This document shows positions 7,753 to 32,000 of a DNA stretch of 32,000 bases, piece by piece; position 1 is the stretch's first letter; every line of letters begins with the position of its first letter. This DNA is from Schaalia odontolytica. GTDB taxonomy: Bacteria > Actinomycetota > Actinomycetes > Actinomycetales > Actinomycetaceae. A program made the translations under genes and the position numbers. The stretch spans positions 2,190,001 to 2,222,000 of the forward strand of contig NZ_CP040006.1 of assembly GCF_005696695.1 (NCBI RefSeq), given 5' to 3'. Below the pieces are notes generated by a model. The model ran no database searches, was not told the DNA's origin, and saw only the letters and a program-made list of their open reading frames with translations.

Positions 7753-8475
7753 TTACGACTGCCCTCCGAGTTCTGCGCTAAAGCGATTGAATCCCAGGAT
7801 CGGATCCACCCCCGGGGTCGGATTTCCCATCTGGGGCAGCGTCACGGGAGGCACCTTGGGAAGGTCGATAGCAGGTTTCGGAAGGGGGCGCGGACCAGTC
7901 GGCCCCGTGATGATCGGATCCAAGGGCTTGAGCGGACCGACGGGGTTATAGGGCATGGGCTCAACCTTCGGCCGACCTGTGCCGGGGTTCGGTCGGCGGT
8001 GGCCGCGAGTCCCCTCGCCCCCGTGGTGGCCCCCCCTCTGCTTGCCCGGGTCACCGGGAAGACGCGGGCCGCGCGTAGGCGGATTGCCACCGCCGATCGG
8101 CGAGGGAAGAGGAACCAGTCGCGGGTTCTTACGACCGTCTCCGCCGCCACCTGGACCCGAGTGACCGCAGTCGTCACCGTTGACAATCGAGCCGATGAGC
8201 TGGCCGTTCTCTTCCTCTGCGGCGATGAAGTCTCGTTCGGCAGCCTCGAGCGAGTCGGCACATTCCTCGAGCTTCATGCTGGTCTTCATGCACTGGTCGG
8301 CGAGCTTCTCTTCGGCTGCCTGCATGGGTGAGGCCAGGTCAGCGCCGGGCATCGCGGAGGCGAACGCACTCGCCCCTCCTTCCGGGCGTGCAGACCGGAC
8401 GGCGTCTGCGGTTTCACGCGAGGTCGCGGCGAGCTTCGGGAACTCACCCGCAACAAAGGACAGATCGCTCATCAT
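7753..8475 (-). CDS. Small helical (EspC/DUF2580-like, T7SS-target-like) protein with a long Pro/Gly-rich tail
   Basis: ATGATG start, with GGAG 3 or 6 nt upstream depending on which ATG is used. The ~100-aa helical N-domain ends in LEAAERDFIAAEEENGQLI. A ~140-aa Pro/Gly/Arg-rich disordered tail follows. There is no signal peptide. The stop lies 2 nt before the hydrolase ATG. Confidence 0.75.
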   Translation of the reverse strand: MMSDLSFVAGEFPKLAATSRETADAVRSARPEGGASAFASAMPGADLASPMQAAEEKLADQCMKTSMKLEECADSLEAAERDFIAAEEENGQLIGSIVNGDDCGHSGPGGGGDGRKNPRLVPLPSPIGGGNPPTRGPRLPGDPGKQRGGHHGGEGTRGHRRPNPGTGRPKVEPMPYNPVGPLKPLDPIITGPTGPRPLPKPAIDLPKVPPVTLPQMGNPTPGVDPILGFNRFSAELGGQS

Positions 8476-24627: not shown

Positions 24628-24888
24628 GGTGTCCTCCGTTCGTGTCGATGCGTTATTTCGTATCCACTGTAGTGGAGGGACGCGCGGGCGCGTGTATTGG
24701 TTTCGCTTTCTCACGAATCGAAGGCAAGCACACAGCGGGTGGGCACCCTGCGCACCTGCCCTGGCCTCGTCGAAAAGGCGCGGAAGGCCCCGTGTCAAGA
24801 CTTGTCGGACAACGTGGGCGCGCGCGGGAGAGAGGCCTCGGTTACAGTGGGGGTGTCCGATTCTGTATGTCTCACGCGGGAGTTGTCA

Positions 24889-25347
24889 GTGGCTGCATCT
24901 TCACCTGTCAGCACCGATCGCATTCGGGATTTGCTGCGTTCCCGGGACGTGCGTTTCGGCGACTACAACGAGGGCGAGCTGGCGTATCTGACGCCGAACG
25001 CCGCTTTTTTCTGGAATGCGACGAACCCTCAGATTTTGCAGTTGCGCGCTCAGTGGCGCGGGATTGCGCGCACGCCGGAGCAGTTCGGTGAGCTTGCCCG
25101 CGAGGTCGCGGCCTGCAATTCGACGCGCACTGGCCCGAAGGCGTACTTGGCGCCCCTGGAGGATGGCACGCAGTACGGCCTGATCGCGGAGTGCAACGTC
25201 GTGGTCATGTCGGGGCTTACGCAGGCTCAGTTGGATAATTTCTTTGAGACGTCCATGTCGATGATCATGGGTTTCTTCGCAGATCTTGAGGTGACGTTGC
25301 CCGGGTTCGTGGATTGGGATTCCCAGGGTCGGGAGGTGTCGCTGTGA
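24889..25347 (+). CDS. YbjN-like small acidic protein (paralogue 1; family tentative)
   Basis: ORF 24697..25347, with GTG 24889 preceded by GGGAG 6 nt upstream. It shares layout with the next gene (LQLRAQW vs LSIRALW; GLTQAQLDNFF vs [11 protein letters not shown]). The stop overlaps the next start (GTGA). Confidence 0.7.
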   Translation: MAASSPVSTDRIRDLLRSRDVRFGDYNEGELAYLTPNAAFFWNATNPQILQLRAQWRGIARTPEQFGELAREVAACNSTRTGPKAYLAPLEDGTQYGLIAECNVVVMSGLTQAQLDNFFETSMSMIMGFFADLEVTLPGFVDWDSQGREVSL

Positions 25348-25826
25348 ACGTTCCGTACGTGGTGCCCGAGGACGACGTGACCCCCTACCCGGCCGATTTT
25401 GAGCGGGTCGTTCAGGCCGTGCGCGAGATGGGTTACGCGCTGGACGTGATCGAGAAGGGGCGCGCGGCGGGCGCTATTTTTGACGAGATTCCTTTCCTCG
25501 TGTCGTTCGATGCGGCGGGGCGTTTCCTGTCGATTCGTGCGCTGTGGGAGTCGGATCTGCCGGCCGAGAGCGCGGAGCCCGCACTTTTTGCGACGGCCGA
25601 CAATTGGAATCGCGAGAAGTATTTCCCGACGGTGTACACGGCGACCTCTCCGGAGGGGACGCTGGGCGTGTACGCGGACTTCGTGGTGGACACGGAGGCC
25701 GGCCTGTCGGATGTGCAGCTGCGTGACGCGATTTCGTCGGGTATTTCGACGGGTATCGCGGCGATCCAGTACGTGAAGGAGTCCGCCTCCGAGGCACTGG
25801 GGCTCGGTGAATCCGGGCGCGAATGA
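25344..25826 (+). CDS. YbjN-like small acidic protein (paralogue 2; family tentative)
   Basis: ORF 25314..25826, with GTG 25344 preceded by GGGAGG 7 nt upstream. The stop overlaps the helicase ATG (ATGA at 25823..25826). Confidence 0.7.
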
Positions 25827-28531
25827 GCGCTGACCTGCCACCCGCTTCTGAGACGTCTTCGTCGAACGAGGCCGGGGCTTCCTCGCCCGATCAGGCGCAG
25901 CAGGGCCTGTCCTCTCCTTCTCCCGCGCACCTGCTCGATGTTCTGGAGCGCATGAGCGCCGGGGATGATCGGCTGCTCGGCCACGTGACGCTGCCGGGCC
26001 GATCGGGGAAGATCGCGGATTGGCCGCAGTGGGTGTCGCCCGCAGTCGTGGACGCGTGGGCGCGCCGGGGCGTGGAGCGCCCGTGGATCCATCAGCGCGA
26101 GGCCTTGGACGCTGTGCGCGAGGGCCGCGACGTCGTGCTCGCGACGGGCACGGGGTCAGGCAAGTCGCTGGCCGCGTGGACGCCGATCCTCTCCGACCTG
26201 GTGGAGGCCGAGGATTCGTCGCGCATTTCCGCGATTCACCGCCGCCCGACGGCCCTGTACCTGGCTCCGACGAAGGCTCTGGCGGCGGATCAGCTGGCTT
26301 CGCTGATGTCGCTTCTCGGCCAGGACGACAAGCCCGCCGACGCGCAGGCGAGCGCAGACGCGGAAGGGAGCCCCGGCCTCGTCGATGAGAGGCTGCGCCG
26401 CGTGCGCGCGACGACCGTGGACGGGGATACTCCGCGCGAGGCGAAGGAGTGGGCGCGGGCGGGCGCTGACCTGATCCTCTCGAACCCTGATTTCCTGCAC
26501 TACGTGATGCTTCCGTCGCACCAGCGGTGGTCACGTTTCCTGGCATCGCTGCGCCTCATCGTCATCGATGAGGCCCACCATTGGCGAGGCGTGACCGGCT
26601 CGCACATTGCGCTGGTCGTGCGCCGACTGCTGCGCGTCGCCCACCACCTGGGCGCGGATCCGCGCGTCGTCATGCTGAGCGCGACCGTGCGCGACGCGGC
26701 GGCGGTGGGCCGCGCGCTCACGGGGCGCGACGCGGTCGCCATCACCGAGGACGGCTCGCCGGCGGGCGCCCACGAACTAGTCCTGTGGCAGGGCGCGATC
26801 ATGGCCGACGAGTCCGAGGTCGACATCTCTTCTTTCCTGGAGGCCCTCGACGCGCCGCCCGGCACGGCCACCCTCAAGGTCCCGATCGTGCGACGCAGCG
26901 CCGGGGTCGAGGCCGCCAACCTGGCCACCGCTTTCGTCGAGGAGGGGGCGCGCCTCCTCGCCTTCGTGCGTTCTCGCGCGGGGGCCGAGGCCGTGGCCGC
27001 TCAGGTGCGCGACCGGCTCTCGGCGCGTGGTTCCGCGGACGCGGGCCGGGTGGGAGCGTATCGCGGCGGTTACCTACCCGAGGAGCGCCGGGCGCTCGAA
27101 GAGGCGATCCGCACGGGAGAAGTACGGGCGCTCGCCACGACGTCCGCGCTCGAAATGGGCCTGGACATCTCGGGCCTGGACGCGACGATCACGGTCGGCT
27201 GGCCGGGCACGCGCGCGTCCCTGCGCCAGCAGATCGGCCGCGCGGGTCGCGCGGGCGCGCCCGGAACCTCCGTGCTCATCGCTTCCGACAACCCGCTGGA
27301 CGCGTACCTAGTGCGCCACCCGGAGCACATTCTCGGCGAGGTCGAGGCCTCCGTCATCGACCCCTCCAACCCGTGGGTGCTGGCACCGCACGTCGCAGCC
27401 GCGGCCGCCGAAATGCCGATCACGGCGTCCGATATCACCTACTTTGGCCCGGAACTGCGAGGCGTCACCGAGCGCCTCGTCGCCGACGGGTACCTTAAGC
27501 GCAGGCCCTCAGGGTTCTTCTGGGACGCCACCAGGCCCGAGCGTCCCAGCGACCTCACCGACCTGCGCGGAGCCGCCGGCGACGTCCAGATCGTCGACGC
27601 GGCCACCGGCACCGTCATCGGTACGATCGACCAGGCCTCCGCCGACGCCCACGTCTTCCCCGGCGCCATCTACATCCACCAGGGGCGCACCTTCCACGTC
27701 CTGAGCCTCACCTCCCTCACCACGCCCGCCGCTCCCGCCGCCCAGGGGTGGCCGCGCGCCCTCCTGCCCGAGGCACCGGGCGGCACCCAGGGAACCGAGC
27801 ACCTCGGGGGCGGGGAGCGGGAGGGGGCCCAGGCCTCGTCGATCATCATCCCGCCCGCGCGGACGGGCGACGCGCGCGTCGCCCTGGTCGAGGAGGTGCG
27901 CACTCCCCTGCGCACGCGCTCGGCGACCCACACGAGCGTCGAGGTCTGCGCGATCGAGGAGACCTACGTGTGCGGGGACGGCACGGTCACCTGGCATCAC
28001 GGGCCGACGAACGTGTCGACGCGGGTCACCGACTACGACCTGCTGCGCCTGCCCGGGCTCGAGTTCATCCGCAACATCGAGCTCTTCCTGCCCACCCACA
28101 CCCTGCCCACGAAGTCGACGTGGTTCACGCTCACTCCGGCGGCGCTGGCCGCGATGGGGATCGAGGCCGCGGACCTGGCGGGCACGCTGCACGCGACCGA
28201 GCACGCGATGATCGGGATCCTGCCGATCGTCGCGACCTGCGACCGCTGGGACCTGGGCGGCCTGTCCACCGAGCTGCACGACGACACGGGCGCGCCCACT
28301 GTCTTTATCCACGACGCGTTCCGGGGCGGCGCGGGGCACGTGCTCGCCGGCTTTCACAGCGCGCGGTCGTGGGTGGCCGCGACCCTCGAGGCCGTCTCCT
28401 CCTGCGACTGCGAGTCCGGGTGCCCGCGCTGCGTCCAATCCCCCAAGTGCGGCAACGGCAACGAACCCCTGTCCAAACAGGGCGCGATCACGCTGCTTAC
28501 CTACCTCCTGGAGCGCGCACCGGGGGCGTAA
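25823..28531 (+). CDS. SF2 DEAH-box helicase with C-terminal DUF1998 zinc-ribbon domain (MrfA/YprA / SftH-like)
   Basis: 902 aa. Motif I is [11 protein letters not shown], Ia is [13 protein letters not shown] is [11 protein letters not shown] is SAT, and VI is [10 protein letters not shown]. The C-terminal four-Cys module is [23 protein letters not shown], the DUF1998/MrfA Zn-binding domain. Confidence 0.9.
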
Positions 28532-28607
28532 TGCACGTTGCCTTTTCGGTAACCTCACCATATGCTGAGCGACGTCCCCCATCACGCCGAACACATGATC
28601 AGTGTGC

Positions 28608-28634
28608 CAGCCACGAGGAGCCGCATCGTGGCTG
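28608..28634 (+). other. Hairpin between the helicase and the S8 protease gene
   Basis: 9-bp stem CAGCCACGA (28608-28616) / TCGTGGCTG (28626-28634) with a 9-nt loop. There is no U-tract, so its function (weak terminator or processing site) is unknown. Confidence 0.3.
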
Positions 28635-28656
28635 TCCAACGATGGAGTCCCTTTCA

Positions 28657-29847
28657 ATGACGACACCTGCCTCTTCTACGGCGCGCCTGCTCGGCGTCGT
28701 CACCTCGACGCTGGCGCTCACTGTGGGGACCGCGGCACTACCCTCCGGCCCGGCGCGGGCGGCGGACACGATCACGGCAGCGGATCAGCCGTACGTCTCC
28801 TACTACCGCCTCGACGAGCTGCACGCCACCGGCCTGACGGGTGAAGGCGTCACTATCGCGATCATCGACGGCGAGGTTGACACGAAAGCCCCCGAGCTGT
28901 CGAGCACAACCATCACGGACAAGACGCCGTGCACGGTGACGTCCAGCCCGTTCGCGCGGACCCACGGCACGGCGGTGGCCTCGGTCATCGGCGCCGACGG
29001 ATACGGGGTCGCTCCCTCGGCGATGATCCTCTCGTACCGATCGAGCCTGTCCGGGCAGGGCGACGTGTCCGGCGATGACTGCCGCGGTGACTTCGGCGTG
29101 CGAAAGGATTCCTACGCGTCCCTCGCCAACCACGCGATGAATGACGGTGCGACGATCATCAACATGTCGGTGTCGAGCGACGACCGGGACGTCTTTTTGA
29201 AGTGGGCGGTCGCTCGAGCCATGTCTCAAGGCGTCATCATCGTCACCGCGAGCGGGAACTCTGGCCGGGATGGGAACTCTCGGTCGCTTGCCTGGTGGTC
29301 GGGCGTTGTCGGCGTCGGCGCCATCGACACTCAGGGTGCCGTCGTGGCGTCCTCATCCAGCGGCGACGGACTCGTCTCTGCAGCCGTGAGCGGCCCCGTG
29401 ACCGTGCACGACTATTCCTCCCGACAGACCACGCAGGTCAGCGGCACGTCGATTTCCTCTCCCCTTGTTGCTGGTTTCCTGGCCTTAGCCCGCCAGAAGT
29501 GGCCCGAGGCGACCGCGAATCAGTTGCTCCAACTCCTCGTTCACACGGGCACCAACCCGGACCACACCTGGAACGAGCACACCGGCTACGGTCCGATCGA
29601 CCCGGCTGCGATGCTGGCGACCGACCCAACCCAATTCCCGGATGAGAATCCCCTGGCGAACAAGGGTGACGCGTCGACGCCGACTCCGGAGGAGATCCAG
29701 CAGTACGAGGACGGGGTCGTCTCTCCCTTCGACATAGCCTTCGACAACTCCTACGTTTACCGAGGCCTGGACCAGAGCACGCTATTCGACAACCGCAACC
29801 CCTACCCCACCCACCTGGGGACCAGCCCGCGCTACCACGGCAAGTAA
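28657..29847 (+). CDS. Secreted S8 (subtilisin-family) serine peptidase
   Basis: ORF 27748..29847 trimmed. ATG 28657 has GGAG 9 nt upstream; ATG 28642 is the alternative. The signal peptide is MTTPASSTARLLGVVTSTLALTVGTAALPSGPARA/AD. The catalytic triad motifs are IAIIDGEVD, HGTAVASVIG and SGTSISSPLVAG. Confidence 0.88.
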   Translation: MTTPASSTARLLGVVTSTLALTVGTAALPSGPARAADTITAADQPYVSYYRLDELHATGLTGEGVTIAIIDGEVDTKAPELSSTTITDKTPCTVTSSPFARTHGTAVASVIGADGYGVAPSAMILSYRSSLSGQGDVSGDDCRGDFGVRKDSYASLANHAMNDGATIINMSVSSDDRDVFLKWAVARAMSQGVIIVTASGNSGRDGNSRSLAWWSGVVGVGAIDTQGAVVASSSSGDGLVSAAVSGPVTVHDYSSRQTTQVSGTSISSPLVAGFLALARQKWPEATANQLLQLLVHTGTNPDHTWNEHTGYGPIDPAAMLATDPTQFPDENPLANKGDASTPTPEEIQQYEDGVVSPFDIAFDNSYVYRGLDQSTLFDNRNPYPTHLGTSPRYHGK

Positions 29848-29901
29848 TCCGACACGACACGGTAACTACCGCTGCACGTCGTCCGTTGTCCGTCATATGA
29901 C

Positions 29902-29930
29902 TTGTTTTCTTGAACACCTGGTCATATGCT
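29902..29930 (+). promoter_or_regulatory. Putative promoter (-35 TTGTTT, 17-nt spacer, -10 TATGCT) overlapped by GTCATATG repeats
   Basis: -35 TTGTTT lies at 29902-29907 and -10 TATGCT at 29925-29930. A 10-bp palindrome GTCATATGAC (29892-29901) has a second copy GTCATATG (29921-29928) overlapping the -10. This stretch is lower in GC than its surroundings. Confidence 0.3.
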
Positions 29931-29995
29931 GATCAGCGTCTCATTTTGTTCCGCAGGACACGTGTTTGGCGGACTCGCTACGCAGGAGGTGCGCC

Positions 29996-30466
29996 GTGGC
30001 TGACGTCGCTTTCGATTCCAACAAGCACGCCCAAACTCGCCAGGACGTCGAACAAGGGGAGGCGGCAATCACCTCCAGCTCCGAGGCAATCACTCGCCTC
30101 TCGAACGGACAATACGAGCGTTTTTGGACCGATGAAGCAGGCCCTCAGGCACTGCGGAACGCGTTTATCTCTTTCCTCGGCACATACGGCAAAATTGCCG
30201 CTACCGAGCGCGACACTCTCCTCTCCTTCGGGCGCAATGTCGATCAAGCGATCGAGGACTTTGCCGCCGTTGAGCAGGCGACGGGGGACGAGCTGAAGGC
30301 GCTTCGCGACTCGATGGGCGACCCATCGTCCTACACCTCACCAACGCCCACTTCTTCGACAAGCCCGTCCTCCTCACCTGCCGGGGGATCAGCAACGAGT
30401 CCCGATCCTGCAACGACGGCGGGCACCAACGGCGCGCCCACCCAGGACGCGCAGACAGATTTCTAG
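29996..30466 (+). CDS. Small helical (EspC/WXG100-like, T7SS-target-like) protein with Ser/Thr/Pro-rich tail; paralogue of 7753..8475
   Basis: ORF 29966..30466, with GTG 29996 preceded by AGGAGG 6 nt upstream. The ~105-aa helical domain has Trp44 in the expected hairpin-turn position (RFWTDEAG). Its C-terminal motif DQAIEDFAAVEQATGDELKAL parallels LEAAERDFIAAEEENGQLIGS of the 7753..8475 product. A tail SYTSPTPTSSTSPSSSPAGG... follows. Confidence 0.75.
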   Translation: MADVAFDSNKHAQTRQDVEQGEAAITSSSEAITRLSNGQYERFWTDEAGPQALRNAFISFLGTYGKIAATERDTLLSFGRNVDQAIEDFAAVEQATGDELKALRDSMGDPSSYTSPTPTSSTSPSSSPAGGSATSPDPATTAGTNGAPTQDAQTDF

Positions 30467-30492
30467 CCCGAGACGCACGATAGGAGACAGAC

Positions 30493-32000
30493 ATGGTGAG
30501 TAGCCCCATGTACGACCGCCTCATGAAGTTCGTTGAAGGCGTGGAGGAATCCCGCAAGCTCAGCGGCTACGACACCGAGCATTCCGCGATTATTGCCGGA
30601 ATGGGGATGATGAGTTCCAGGGTGTCCCACTTCAAGGAATACCAGGGCTTCGAGGGGCAAACGGGCGAGGCCATCGATGGCTGGATCGATCGGGCGCAGC
30701 AACGCTACAGCAGCGAACGACAGGGGTACGTGACCGGCACCGAGCACTACGTCGAAGGCCGACGCCTGCTCGTGCACGCCGCCGAGGACGCTAAGCTCCT
30801 ATCACCAACGCTCCTAGACAAGGCAACCGAAGCAATGCGGGGGCTTGCTCAGGTCGTCATTCCTGTCACGAAGCACATGGGCCCATTCGGAGAGACCATC
30901 AACACGATCGCCACAACTGGCGCCGCCTACGTGGACGCTATCGAGGCGCAGGCAAACGCACAGCGCGAGGCTGCGGCCACGGCAATCCTGCAGCGAGTCA
31001 ACGACGAGGCGCAGAAGCTCGCCGACCAGTTGCAAGCACACACGGAACAGCTCAAAGATCTGAAGGACGGCATTGACGATAGGTCCTTTCCTTCCCATTC
31101 AGGCCCCTCTAGCCCATCCGTGTCCGATCAACTAAACCAGGGCAACATGTGGGTCTCCCCTCACGAAGCAGGCGTGTACGGAGCCAGCCGCGATGACGAC
31201 TACGGGCGTTCCGACCTTCGGGGTCAAGGGTCGGGCCTGTACGCGGACGGATACGACGAGGGCGGTCCCATCGATTCCCGCGTCATGTCCTCGAAGCGTA
31301 TTCCCAACCAATACATTTCCGAAGGAGAGCTTGGATCCCGCCTGAACCCCGTCACCGATCCGCAGGATCTGATGGATATCGACCTGCTACACACGCGCGT
31401 CAACGGTGACCGACACGCGAACGGCGTCATCGGCGGTCACACCCCGGCTTCTCCCGTCGATCGCGATCACCCTCTATGGCGCTTCAACGGAGGCCCTGCC
31501 AGCGAATCGTCAACGGCTGGTCGCCTCGGCGGAGCCGGCATCCTCGGCGCAGGGGCGTTAGGCCTTCGCGGCTCCGCTCGTATGGGTTCTGCTGGAACCA
31601 GCATGGGGCGAGCCGGTGGAGCGGGAGCAGGAAGCGCGGCCGGCTCAACGGCCCTGCGCACCGGTTCCTACTCCGGTGCCGGATTTGGCAAGTACACGCC
31701 CCCTGCTCCTGCTGGCGCAACGGGGGCTGGTGCCAACGGAACCTCTGGAGTGACGGGCTTGTCAGGGACGTCCAGCGGCGCGAATAGTGCTGGAAGCTCC
31801 GCGGCCGGCGGTCGCACCCAGGGAGCCGGCGGTTTCATGGGTGCTGGCGGCGCTGGCGCTGGAGGAAAGAAGGACGAGAAGAAGGTCCAGCGACGCCGCT
31901 ACACGCCGTTCCGATTTGAGGAAGACGATGAGCTGCCCGAGGGCTACGTGAACCCACTGTCGCAGACCTACGGTTCCGACAAGGACATTTCGCCCGCACC
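30493..32000 (+). CDS. Large signal-less protein with helical N-domain and Gly/Ala/Ser-rich region, 5' 502 codons (3' end beyond the right window edge)
   Basis: ATG 30493 has AGGAGA 5 nt upstream and lies 26 nt after the previous stop. I translated all 502 in-frame codons to position 32000 and found no stop. It is absent from the ORF track because it is open at the window edge. The N-terminal ~190 aa look helical (..FEGQTGEAIDGWIDRAQQRY.., ..AIEAQANAQREAAATAILQRVNDEAQKLADQLQAHTEQLKDL..). Confidence 0.8.
   Translation, partial: MVSSPMYDRLMKFVEGVEESRKLSGYDTEHSAIIAGMGMMSSRVSHFKEYQGFEGQTGEAIDGWIDRAQQRYSSERQGYVTGTEHYVEGRRLLVHAAEDAKLLSPTLLDKATEAMRGLAQVVIPVTKHMGPFGETINTIATTGAAYVDAIEAQANAQREAAATAILQRVNDEAQKLADQLQAHTEQLKDLKDGIDDRSFPSHSGPSSPSVSDQLNQGNMWVSPHEAGVYGASRDDDYGRSDLRGQGSGLYADGYDEGGPIDSRVMSSKRIPNQYISEGELGSRLNPVTDPQDLMDIDLLHTRVNGDRHANGVIGGHTPASPVDRDHPLWRFNGGPASESSTAGRLGGAGILGAGALGLRGSARMGSAGTSMGRAGGAGAGSAAGSTALRTGSYSGAGFGKYTPPAPAGATGAGANGTSGVTGLSGTSSGANSAGSSAAGGRTQGAGGFMGAGGAGAGGKKDEKKVQRRRYTPFRFEEDDELPEGYVNPLSQTYGSDKDISPA

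Follow-up and report, generated by a model that had tools for sequence, protein, structure and literature searches.

At the right-hand end of a 32,000-nucleotide stretch of the Schaalia odontolytica genome (assembly GCF_005696695.1, contig NZ_CP040006.1, positions 2,190,001 to 2,222,000 of the forward strand; hereafter the window), two adjacent genes code for a small protein of 156 residues and a large protein of 514 residues. We consider it very likely that they are a satellite AesA/AesB-type Esx substrate pair of S. odontolytica XH001. Gene structure, full length, domain architecture, motifs and cassette organisation of the pair are directly observable and, with homology to copies linked to Esx clusters, carry this assignment.

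AesA and AesB were described by Wang et al. (bioRxiv 2026-09-09; PMC13622651) in S. odontolytica F0309, where the Esx system limits the epibiont TM7-008. Both proteins are encoded within the Esx cluster, their secretion depends on EccC and on each other, and they co-precipitate (PMC13622651). AesB includes an N-terminal helical domain, a Gly-rich disordered region of ~160 aa and a charged region of 56 residues, whose GYVNP motif is required to restrict TM7-008 in F0309 (PMC13622651). An FXG motif of AesB replaces WXG/LXG and, together with an aspartate that AesA has close to its N-terminus, was proposed to constitute a variant two-part Esx targeting signal (PMC13622651). AesB homologues are also located elsewhere in the F0309 genome, each beside a small EsxA/B-like protein (PMC13622651). 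In the locus tags of F0309, AesA and AesB are OBNOAD_00323 and OBNOAD_00324, and the distal homologues include 00094, 00733 and 01965. The AesB clade of PMC13622651 takes in proteins of the same architecture with 30% identity or more.

The exact sequence of the small protein is present on NCBI record LLVT01000001.1. The LLVT accession belongs to Schaalia (formerly Actinomyces) odontolytica XH001, host of the Saccharibacteria epibiont TM7x (PMC4742689). The last 12005 nt of the window align to this record with 0 mismatches, and the same record supplied the DNA downstream of the window. Both open reading frames are found on the + strand exactly where an initial annotation, made from the sequence of the window alone, had placed them. 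The pair is flanked by a helicase gene on one side and the Tad pilus locus on the other.

Gene structure and full length of the pair

The gene order and the translation signals of the pair are as follows.

29996..30466, + strand: small open reading frame, 156 aa, with GTG start, TAG stop and AGGAGG 6 nt upstream
30483..30487, + strand: ribosome-binding site GGAGA, read directly, inside the 26-nt gap 30467..30492
30493..32000, + strand: large AesB-like protein, residues 1-502 of 514, with ATG at 30493 and the gene end 37 nt past the window

The arrangement described in the initial annotation, a small reading frame followed by a 26-nt gap with a ribosome-binding site and a large reading frame devoid of a signal peptide, is thus borne out. 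The GTG start at 29996 agrees with the public gene call and with the homologues, which open with M-ADVAF(D/N)S. Kyte-Doolittle profiles in 19-residue windows reach maxima of 0.95 and 0.69 for the two proteins, with no hydrophobic segment, signal peptide or membrane span in either.

The large protein had been taken to be substantially cut by the end of the window. In the XH001 record it is 514 aa long, and extension of the DNA added just 12 residues, PRKDDGWDPRQW. More than 2000 relatives are present in the databases, and the best 120 listed are 512-521 aa long. Since the full-length protein has 514 residues and the homologues examined are uniform in length, there is no toxin domain beyond the window.

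Domain architecture and conservation of the large protein

The following regions and motifs were delimited in the large protein.

30493..31068, + strand: N-terminal helical domain, aa 1-192 (helices 5-20 and 24-49, FXG turn, helices 56-101 and 110-117, hairpin 121-141, helix 143-192)
30649..30657, + strand: FXG motif F53-E54-G55, turn between the long helices 24-49 and 56-101
aa 193-277: short, variable linker plus variable region, mean paralogue identity 26% (193-214) and 42% (215-277)
31324..31488, + strand: middle block, aa 278-332, GSRxNPxTDPxDLMxxDLLHTRVNG...NGVxGGHTPAxxxDxxHPLWxxN
31489..31866, + strand: Gly/Ala/Ser-rich disordered region, aa 333-458 (33% G, 21% A, 21% S+T)
31867..32000, + strand: charged C-terminal region K459-W514, 56 aa, of which 44 residues and part of the 45th codon are inside the window
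31942..31956, + strand: GYVNP motif, aa 484-488, all five residues invariant in alignment A1

Modelling with AlphaFold2 from 23 sequences of the family predicts a helical domain at aa 1-192 with a predicted local distance difference test score (pLDDT) of ~80-90, in good agreement with the ~190 helical residues initially suggested. Everything beyond about residue 225 is predicted to be disordered. The stretch FEGQTGEA, which the initial annotation had highlighted, corresponds to the invariant FXG turn of the family: F53 and G55 do not vary in alignments A1 and A3, and the turn reads G52-F53-x-G55. The N-domain family is narrow: a search among 1.84 billion representative proteins returned 63 clusters with full-length members of 437-558 aa, and none of them is a convincing long member. 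The sole longer entry, of 1560 aa, is a weak, repeat-derived match (E 2e-5).

Conservation along the protein is the reverse of the polymorphic pattern originally proposed. The helical N-domain is the least conserved ordered part (41% mean paralogue identity). The middle block is the best conserved stretch of the family, with ~30 invariant columns and 78% mean paralogue identity, and it is predicted to be disordered (pLDDT 30-47). The Gly/Ala/Ser-rich region (pLDDT ~30-45) has 45% paralogue identity and differs among homologues in length and sequence. The charged tail, KKDEKKVQRRRYTPFRFEEDDELPEGYVNPLSQTYGSDKDISPAPRKDDGWDPRQW, contains 23% D+E and 21% K+R (44% charged) and has 66% mean paralogue identity, calculated over residues 459-502. 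Possible roles of the middle block are those of a protease site or binding motif.

Scanning both proteins against Pfam, NCBIfam and PADLOC has found nothing above threshold. A profile search of the PDB with the N-domain alignment gave chance-level matches, and a Foldseek search of the AlphaFold2 model against the PDB reached a best E value of 0.37, to generic BAR/ClyA-type bundles, without recovering EspB, PE/PPE or LXG complexes. No canonical YxxxD/E export motif is conserved in either protein: Y50-x-x-x-E54 is found in this copy alone in the alignment.

Residues 121-141 (30853..30915) are predicted, with lower confidence, to form a partly hydrophobic beta-hairpin between the long helices of the N-domain. 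Combined with chance-level resemblances of this domain to ClyA and HBL, the hairpin is a lead for a possible membrane-active role.

The small partner protein

The AlphaFold2 model of the small protein shows helices at residues 8-37 and 48-106, a turn near W44 and a disordered S/T/P tail at ~107-156, with a mean pLDDT of 52. The protein can be described with low confidence as an AesA/WXG100-like helical hairpin of ~105 aa followed by a disordered S/T/P tail; the initial annotation had given it a helical head and a disordered S/T/P tail.

Searches returned 105 relatives of the small protein. In the alignment of the small family, Q39, W44 and E47 are invariant and the N-terminal ADVAFDS is conserved. 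The central motif is W44-x-x-E47-x-G49 rather than WXG, and the hairpin itself is predicted with low confidence. Pfam has no WXG100 match for this family, the best scores being weak ones to DUF2563 (0.069) and, for one member, EspC (0.036). A PDB profile search with the small-protein alignment produced chance-level matches.

Probable membership of the AesA/AesB family

The large protein aligns over its full length (40% identity, E 1e-80) with the Esx-linked copy located beside EccC in locus L022. The small protein has 28% identity (E 6e-8) to the small protein of the same Esx-cluster copy.

The likeness to F0309 AesA/AesB, which belongs to the same species group, extends to every feature of the published architecture. 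The large protein has a helical N-domain (~110-190 aa in the family), FXG between the first two long helices, a Gly-rich region and a GYVNP-containing tail of exactly 56 residues (~56 in the family). Its small helical hairpin partner is encoded immediately upstream, and there is no Sec signal. The window pair differs from AesA/AesB in being located outside an Esx cluster and in having a shorter Gly-rich region (~126 vs ~160 aa). No Esx core gene, be it EccC, EccD or WXG100, was found in the window or the 8.4 kb that follow it, and we therefore treat the pair as an AesB-like satellite copy. For the prototype, secretion, heterodimerisation and an anti-epibiont role were reported (PMC13622651); by analogy, the XH001 copy would be secreted and active as well.

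The main text of PMC13622651 mentions no protease, peptidase or mycosin and does not discuss the middle block. Four features described here appear to go beyond that text: coupling to S8 proteases, a middle block conserved better than the GYVNP tail, copy-number variation and the upstream GGTCATATG element.

Cassette organisation and S8 proteases

The gene downstream of the pair, where an immunity gene had been anticipated, codes for a 399-aa S8 protease (S8b). In XH001 its start overlaps the stop of the large gene by 22 nt. A paralogous S8 gene is located just upstream of the pair.

28657..29847, + strand: S8a, subtilisin-family mycosin-like protease, 396 aa, Pfam Peptidase_S8 E 4e-33

TIGR03921 (T7SS_mycosin, where T7SS stands for type VII secretion system) is the best family model for both proteases by a wide margin, and for S8a it is the best NCBIfam model with E 1.8e-49. 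The scores of S8a and S8b (168.8 and 154.2 bits) are under the 278.75 cut-off of this model, and the match ends at about profile position 315 of 353. Both enzymes have intact Asp-His-Ser triads (D71/H103/S265 in S8a, D76/H108/S268 in S8b) and an N-terminal signal-like hydrophobic segment. The last 60 residues of either protein contain no hydrophobic segment, so the C-terminal membrane anchor of mycosins is lacking.

Cassette-linked S8 proteases share a C-terminal extension of ~75 aa with a near-invariant HLGTSPR(Y/F)H end, usually closed by G/R-K. It is located at 29620..29847 in S8a and is also found in L001 (12021-13220) and L029 (11519-17797).

The order small-large-S8 is kept in every related locus with downstream sequence available, in at least six genomic contexts, and the S8 start usually overlaps the preceding gene. 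In L022 the order is EccC, lipoprotein, small, large, two S8 genes, lipoprotein, small, large and three S8 genes. In L029 the genes for EccD, two WXG100 proteins, EccC, a lipoprotein and the small and large proteins come, in this order, before five S8 genes and a Ser/Thr kinase gene. The Esx clusters of the relatives contain S8 arrays of two to five genes. The P0334 locus is another satellite cassette and not the Esx cluster.

A gene for a ~180-aa lipoprotein with a signal peptide and a lipobox Cys precedes the small gene in Esx-linked and some satellite cassettes (L022 3234-3782 and 8824-9372; L029 8817-9359; L031 8833-9375). There is none in the window cassette.

Strains were compared across the helicase-to-Tad interval (28531..30466 in the window). 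Two full cassettes occupy it in L011, L012 and L015 and a single one in L010, L014, L016, L017 and L021; in XH001 and L009 a single cassette is accompanied by an orphan S8a. Cassette copy number at this locus therefore differs between close strains. S8a is 68-69% identical to the cassette-1 S8 of L011, L012 and L015; XH001 has neither the small nor the large gene of that first cassette, and S8a is its orphaned third gene.

Some of the records used carry unexpected titles. Those of Sanguibacter keddieii 250_SKED (L012) and Xylanimonas cellulosilytica 352_XCEL (L017), and P0105, a 'Mycobacteroides abscessus' protein, contain this locus or protein with ~90% identity to Schaalia. These three records are probably mislabelled or contaminated.

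Two adjoining, overlapping YbjN-family genes (24697..25826) are located just upstream of the helicase gene, a placement conserved in related strains. The fold of YbjN proteins resembles that of secretion chaperones.

Conserved element upstream of the small gene

The region in front of the small gene contains a short conserved element.

29920..29935, + strand: conserved element GGTCATATGCTGATCA, 76 nt before the start of the small gene

Its 9-mer core GGTCATATG is present once each in 19 of 35 loci, has the fuller form GGTCATATG(CTGAKCA) and gives a single match in the window. It is located 71-76 nt upstream of the small-gene start, as checked in the window, L018 (9472-9480) and L025 (272-280). 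The 9-mer is also found in front of divergent paralogues (L018, L025-27) whose proteins are just 30-40% identical. The GGTCATATGCTGATCA/GGTCATATG element may be a shared promoter or operator, and perhaps the Esr response that PMC13622651 describes is directed at it. Scanning of the locus for consensus promoters and terminators was uninformative in this high-GC genome.

Proposed mechanism and alternative explanations

We propose that the 156-aa protein would bind through its hairpin to the N-domain of the 514-aa protein, giving an elongated bundle of helices. In it, the FXG turn of the large chain and the N-terminal aspartate of the small one would make up the variant two-part signal, shown to an EccC ATPase encoded elsewhere in the genome, and the pair would be exported without a Sec signal. 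The working part is expected to be the disordered C-terminal half, which would act without any folded enzyme and comprises the middle block, the Gly-rich spacer and the 56-residue tail. GYVNP of the charged tail may serve as a docking determinant, as the same motif of the prototype AesB is needed to restrain Saccharibacteria epibionts. Translational coupling of the large gene to a Sec-exported, anchorless, mycosin-like S8 gene suggests that the protease would act on or alongside the secreted substrate at the cell surface.

Several observations weigh against this explanation. The pair is not the cluster-encoded AesA/AesB, as no Esx core gene was found in the 32 kb of the window or the next 8.4 kb. 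Family membership is drawn from the published descriptions of F0309 AesA/AesB and from homology to Esx-linked copies in other genomes. The fold of the N-domain has no significant Foldseek match to EspB, PE/PPE or LXG proteins, and the model of the small protein is of low confidence. Contact between the S8 protease and its presumed substrate is hypothetical. In F0309, the epibiont was unaffected by deletion of a distal homologue, OBNOAD_01965, whose product was not detected in the secretome (PMC13622651). This leaves room for a satellite copy that is silent or redundant, or that serves under different conditions.

A more far-reaching version of the satellite substrate pair can also be envisaged, in which the AesB-like gene and its coupled S8 constitute a self-contained module. 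After Esx export, the protease would cleave the middle block (DLLHTRVNG...HPLW) and thereby release or activate the GYVNP part, while variation in cassette number and the S8 arrays would reflect an arms race with epibionts. We regard this version as speculative and rather unlikely.

It is improbable, in our opinion, that the large protein is instead chiefly a component of the surface or matrix, a Gly-rich, PE_PGRS-like coat or scaffold that Esx exports and the neighbouring S8 proteases trim, which would serve envelope remodelling rather than act as an effector on another organism. Its Gly/Ala/Ser-rich disordered region does resemble low-complexity T7SS cargo such as PPE/PGRS tails, a comparison also made in PMC13622651, and the cassettes are tied to secreted proteases and elsewhere to a lipoprotein as well. 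However, F0309 AesB was recovered from cell-free supernatant, and point substitutions in GYVNP specifically relieved epibiont restriction (PMC13622651), a result more in keeping with a docking motif than with a bulk coat.

There is very little to recommend a third possibility, namely that the N-domain is itself an active ClyA/Hbl-like membrane-inserting bundle with a beta-tongue and that the tail serves for targeting only. The model does contain two helices of ~45-50 residues and the partly hydrophobic hairpin 121-141, ClyA is among the weak Foldseek matches (E 0.57-2.3), and Pfam Bacillus_HBL gives a weak match (E 0.058-0.16). But all these matches are far from significance and BAR domains score equally; the hairpin is the lowest-confidence part of the domain (pLDDT 56-59), the N-domain as a whole is the least conserved ordered part of the protein, and PMC13622651 models it as a heterodimerisation and secretion domain.

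The polymorphic toxin module of the initial annotation, with a conserved N-terminal trafficking domain, a variable toxin domain beyond the window and an immunity gene, was recommended by a multi-copy family and by a grammar of small helical partner plus helical N-domain that resembles Lap/LXG toxin systems, but it is refuted by the full-length XH001 sequence and the uniform length of the homologues examined and retains next to no probability: the protein ends 12 residues past the window, no family member examined has an added C-terminal domain (the outcome that the annotation had itself named as evidence against it), the C-terminus is conserved while the N-domain varies, and the downstream gene codes for an S8 protease. 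What stands of the two-gene grammar is a real secretion-substrate grammar in a multi-copy, effector-like family; the toxin domain does not belong to it.

Comparison with known type VII substrates

The putative satellite substrate pair can also be compared with the EspB substrate of mycobacterial ESX-1, its chaperone EspK and the protease MycP1. Common to both are a helical N-terminal bundle with a WXG-type turn, a long low-complexity C-terminus and a subtilisin-family protease encoded by the system. MycP1 cleaves the C-terminus of EspB. EspB is a single secreted chain mimicking a PE-PPE pair, whereas a separate small partner is encoded in the window. There is no detectable sequence or Foldseek similarity to EspB, and the window proteases lack the mycosin anchor and score under the mycosin cut-off.

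In the LXG/Lap systems of Bacillota (T7SSb, e.g., TelA-LapA3-LapA4), small helical proteins encoded upstream bind the N-terminal helical domain to give a secretion-competent bundle, as is proposed for the window pair, and an XG-type turn is present in both. LXG proteins continue with a toxin domain that is folded and variable, and an immunity gene comes next, whereas members of the window family have a conserved disordered C-terminus followed by a protease gene.

Relation to the module at 8475..6143

The initial annotation regarded the pair as paralogous to another module of the window, at 8475..6143. The region 5544..8475 (- strand) codes for three proteins. The first, of 240 aa, matches EspC weakly; the second, of 535 aa, combines an N-terminus of weak WXG100 resemblance, with an LTG turn, and a strongly matched Abhydrolase_8 domain (E 2e-31); the third is a DUF4853 protein. 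Together they probably constitute a further set of Esx substrates.

Comparison of the N-domains and of the small proteins of the two modules was not significant by BLASTP (E 0.33 and 0.018) or by hhalign (probability 0.3% and 2.6%, with a thin hydrolase-side profile of 2 sequences), and paralogy is not supported on these grounds. What the two modules have in common is only the general grammar of WXG/LXG-type substrates.

The DUF4853 protein is a possible partner of the immunity type. A homologue of the hydrolase is located directly beside an AesB-like cassette in Actinomyces sp. HPA0247 (L019 12771-15870), accompanied by up to three DUF4853-like stretches, one of them partly masked in the record.

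Significance for S. odontolytica and its epibionts

A helical partner combined with a helical N-domain does not imply a toxin domain, as the AesB family illustrates. In the sister strain F0309, Esx and AesB restrain epibionts (PMC13622651). The overlapping protease gene, the conserved middle block, the shared upstream element and the cassette numbers of different strains are possible handles on the mechanism of this restraint. XH001 is the original host strain of TM7x, the first cultivated Saccharibacteria, and its pair in the AesB family is therefore a candidate effector of defence in the host-epibiont model that has been studied most.

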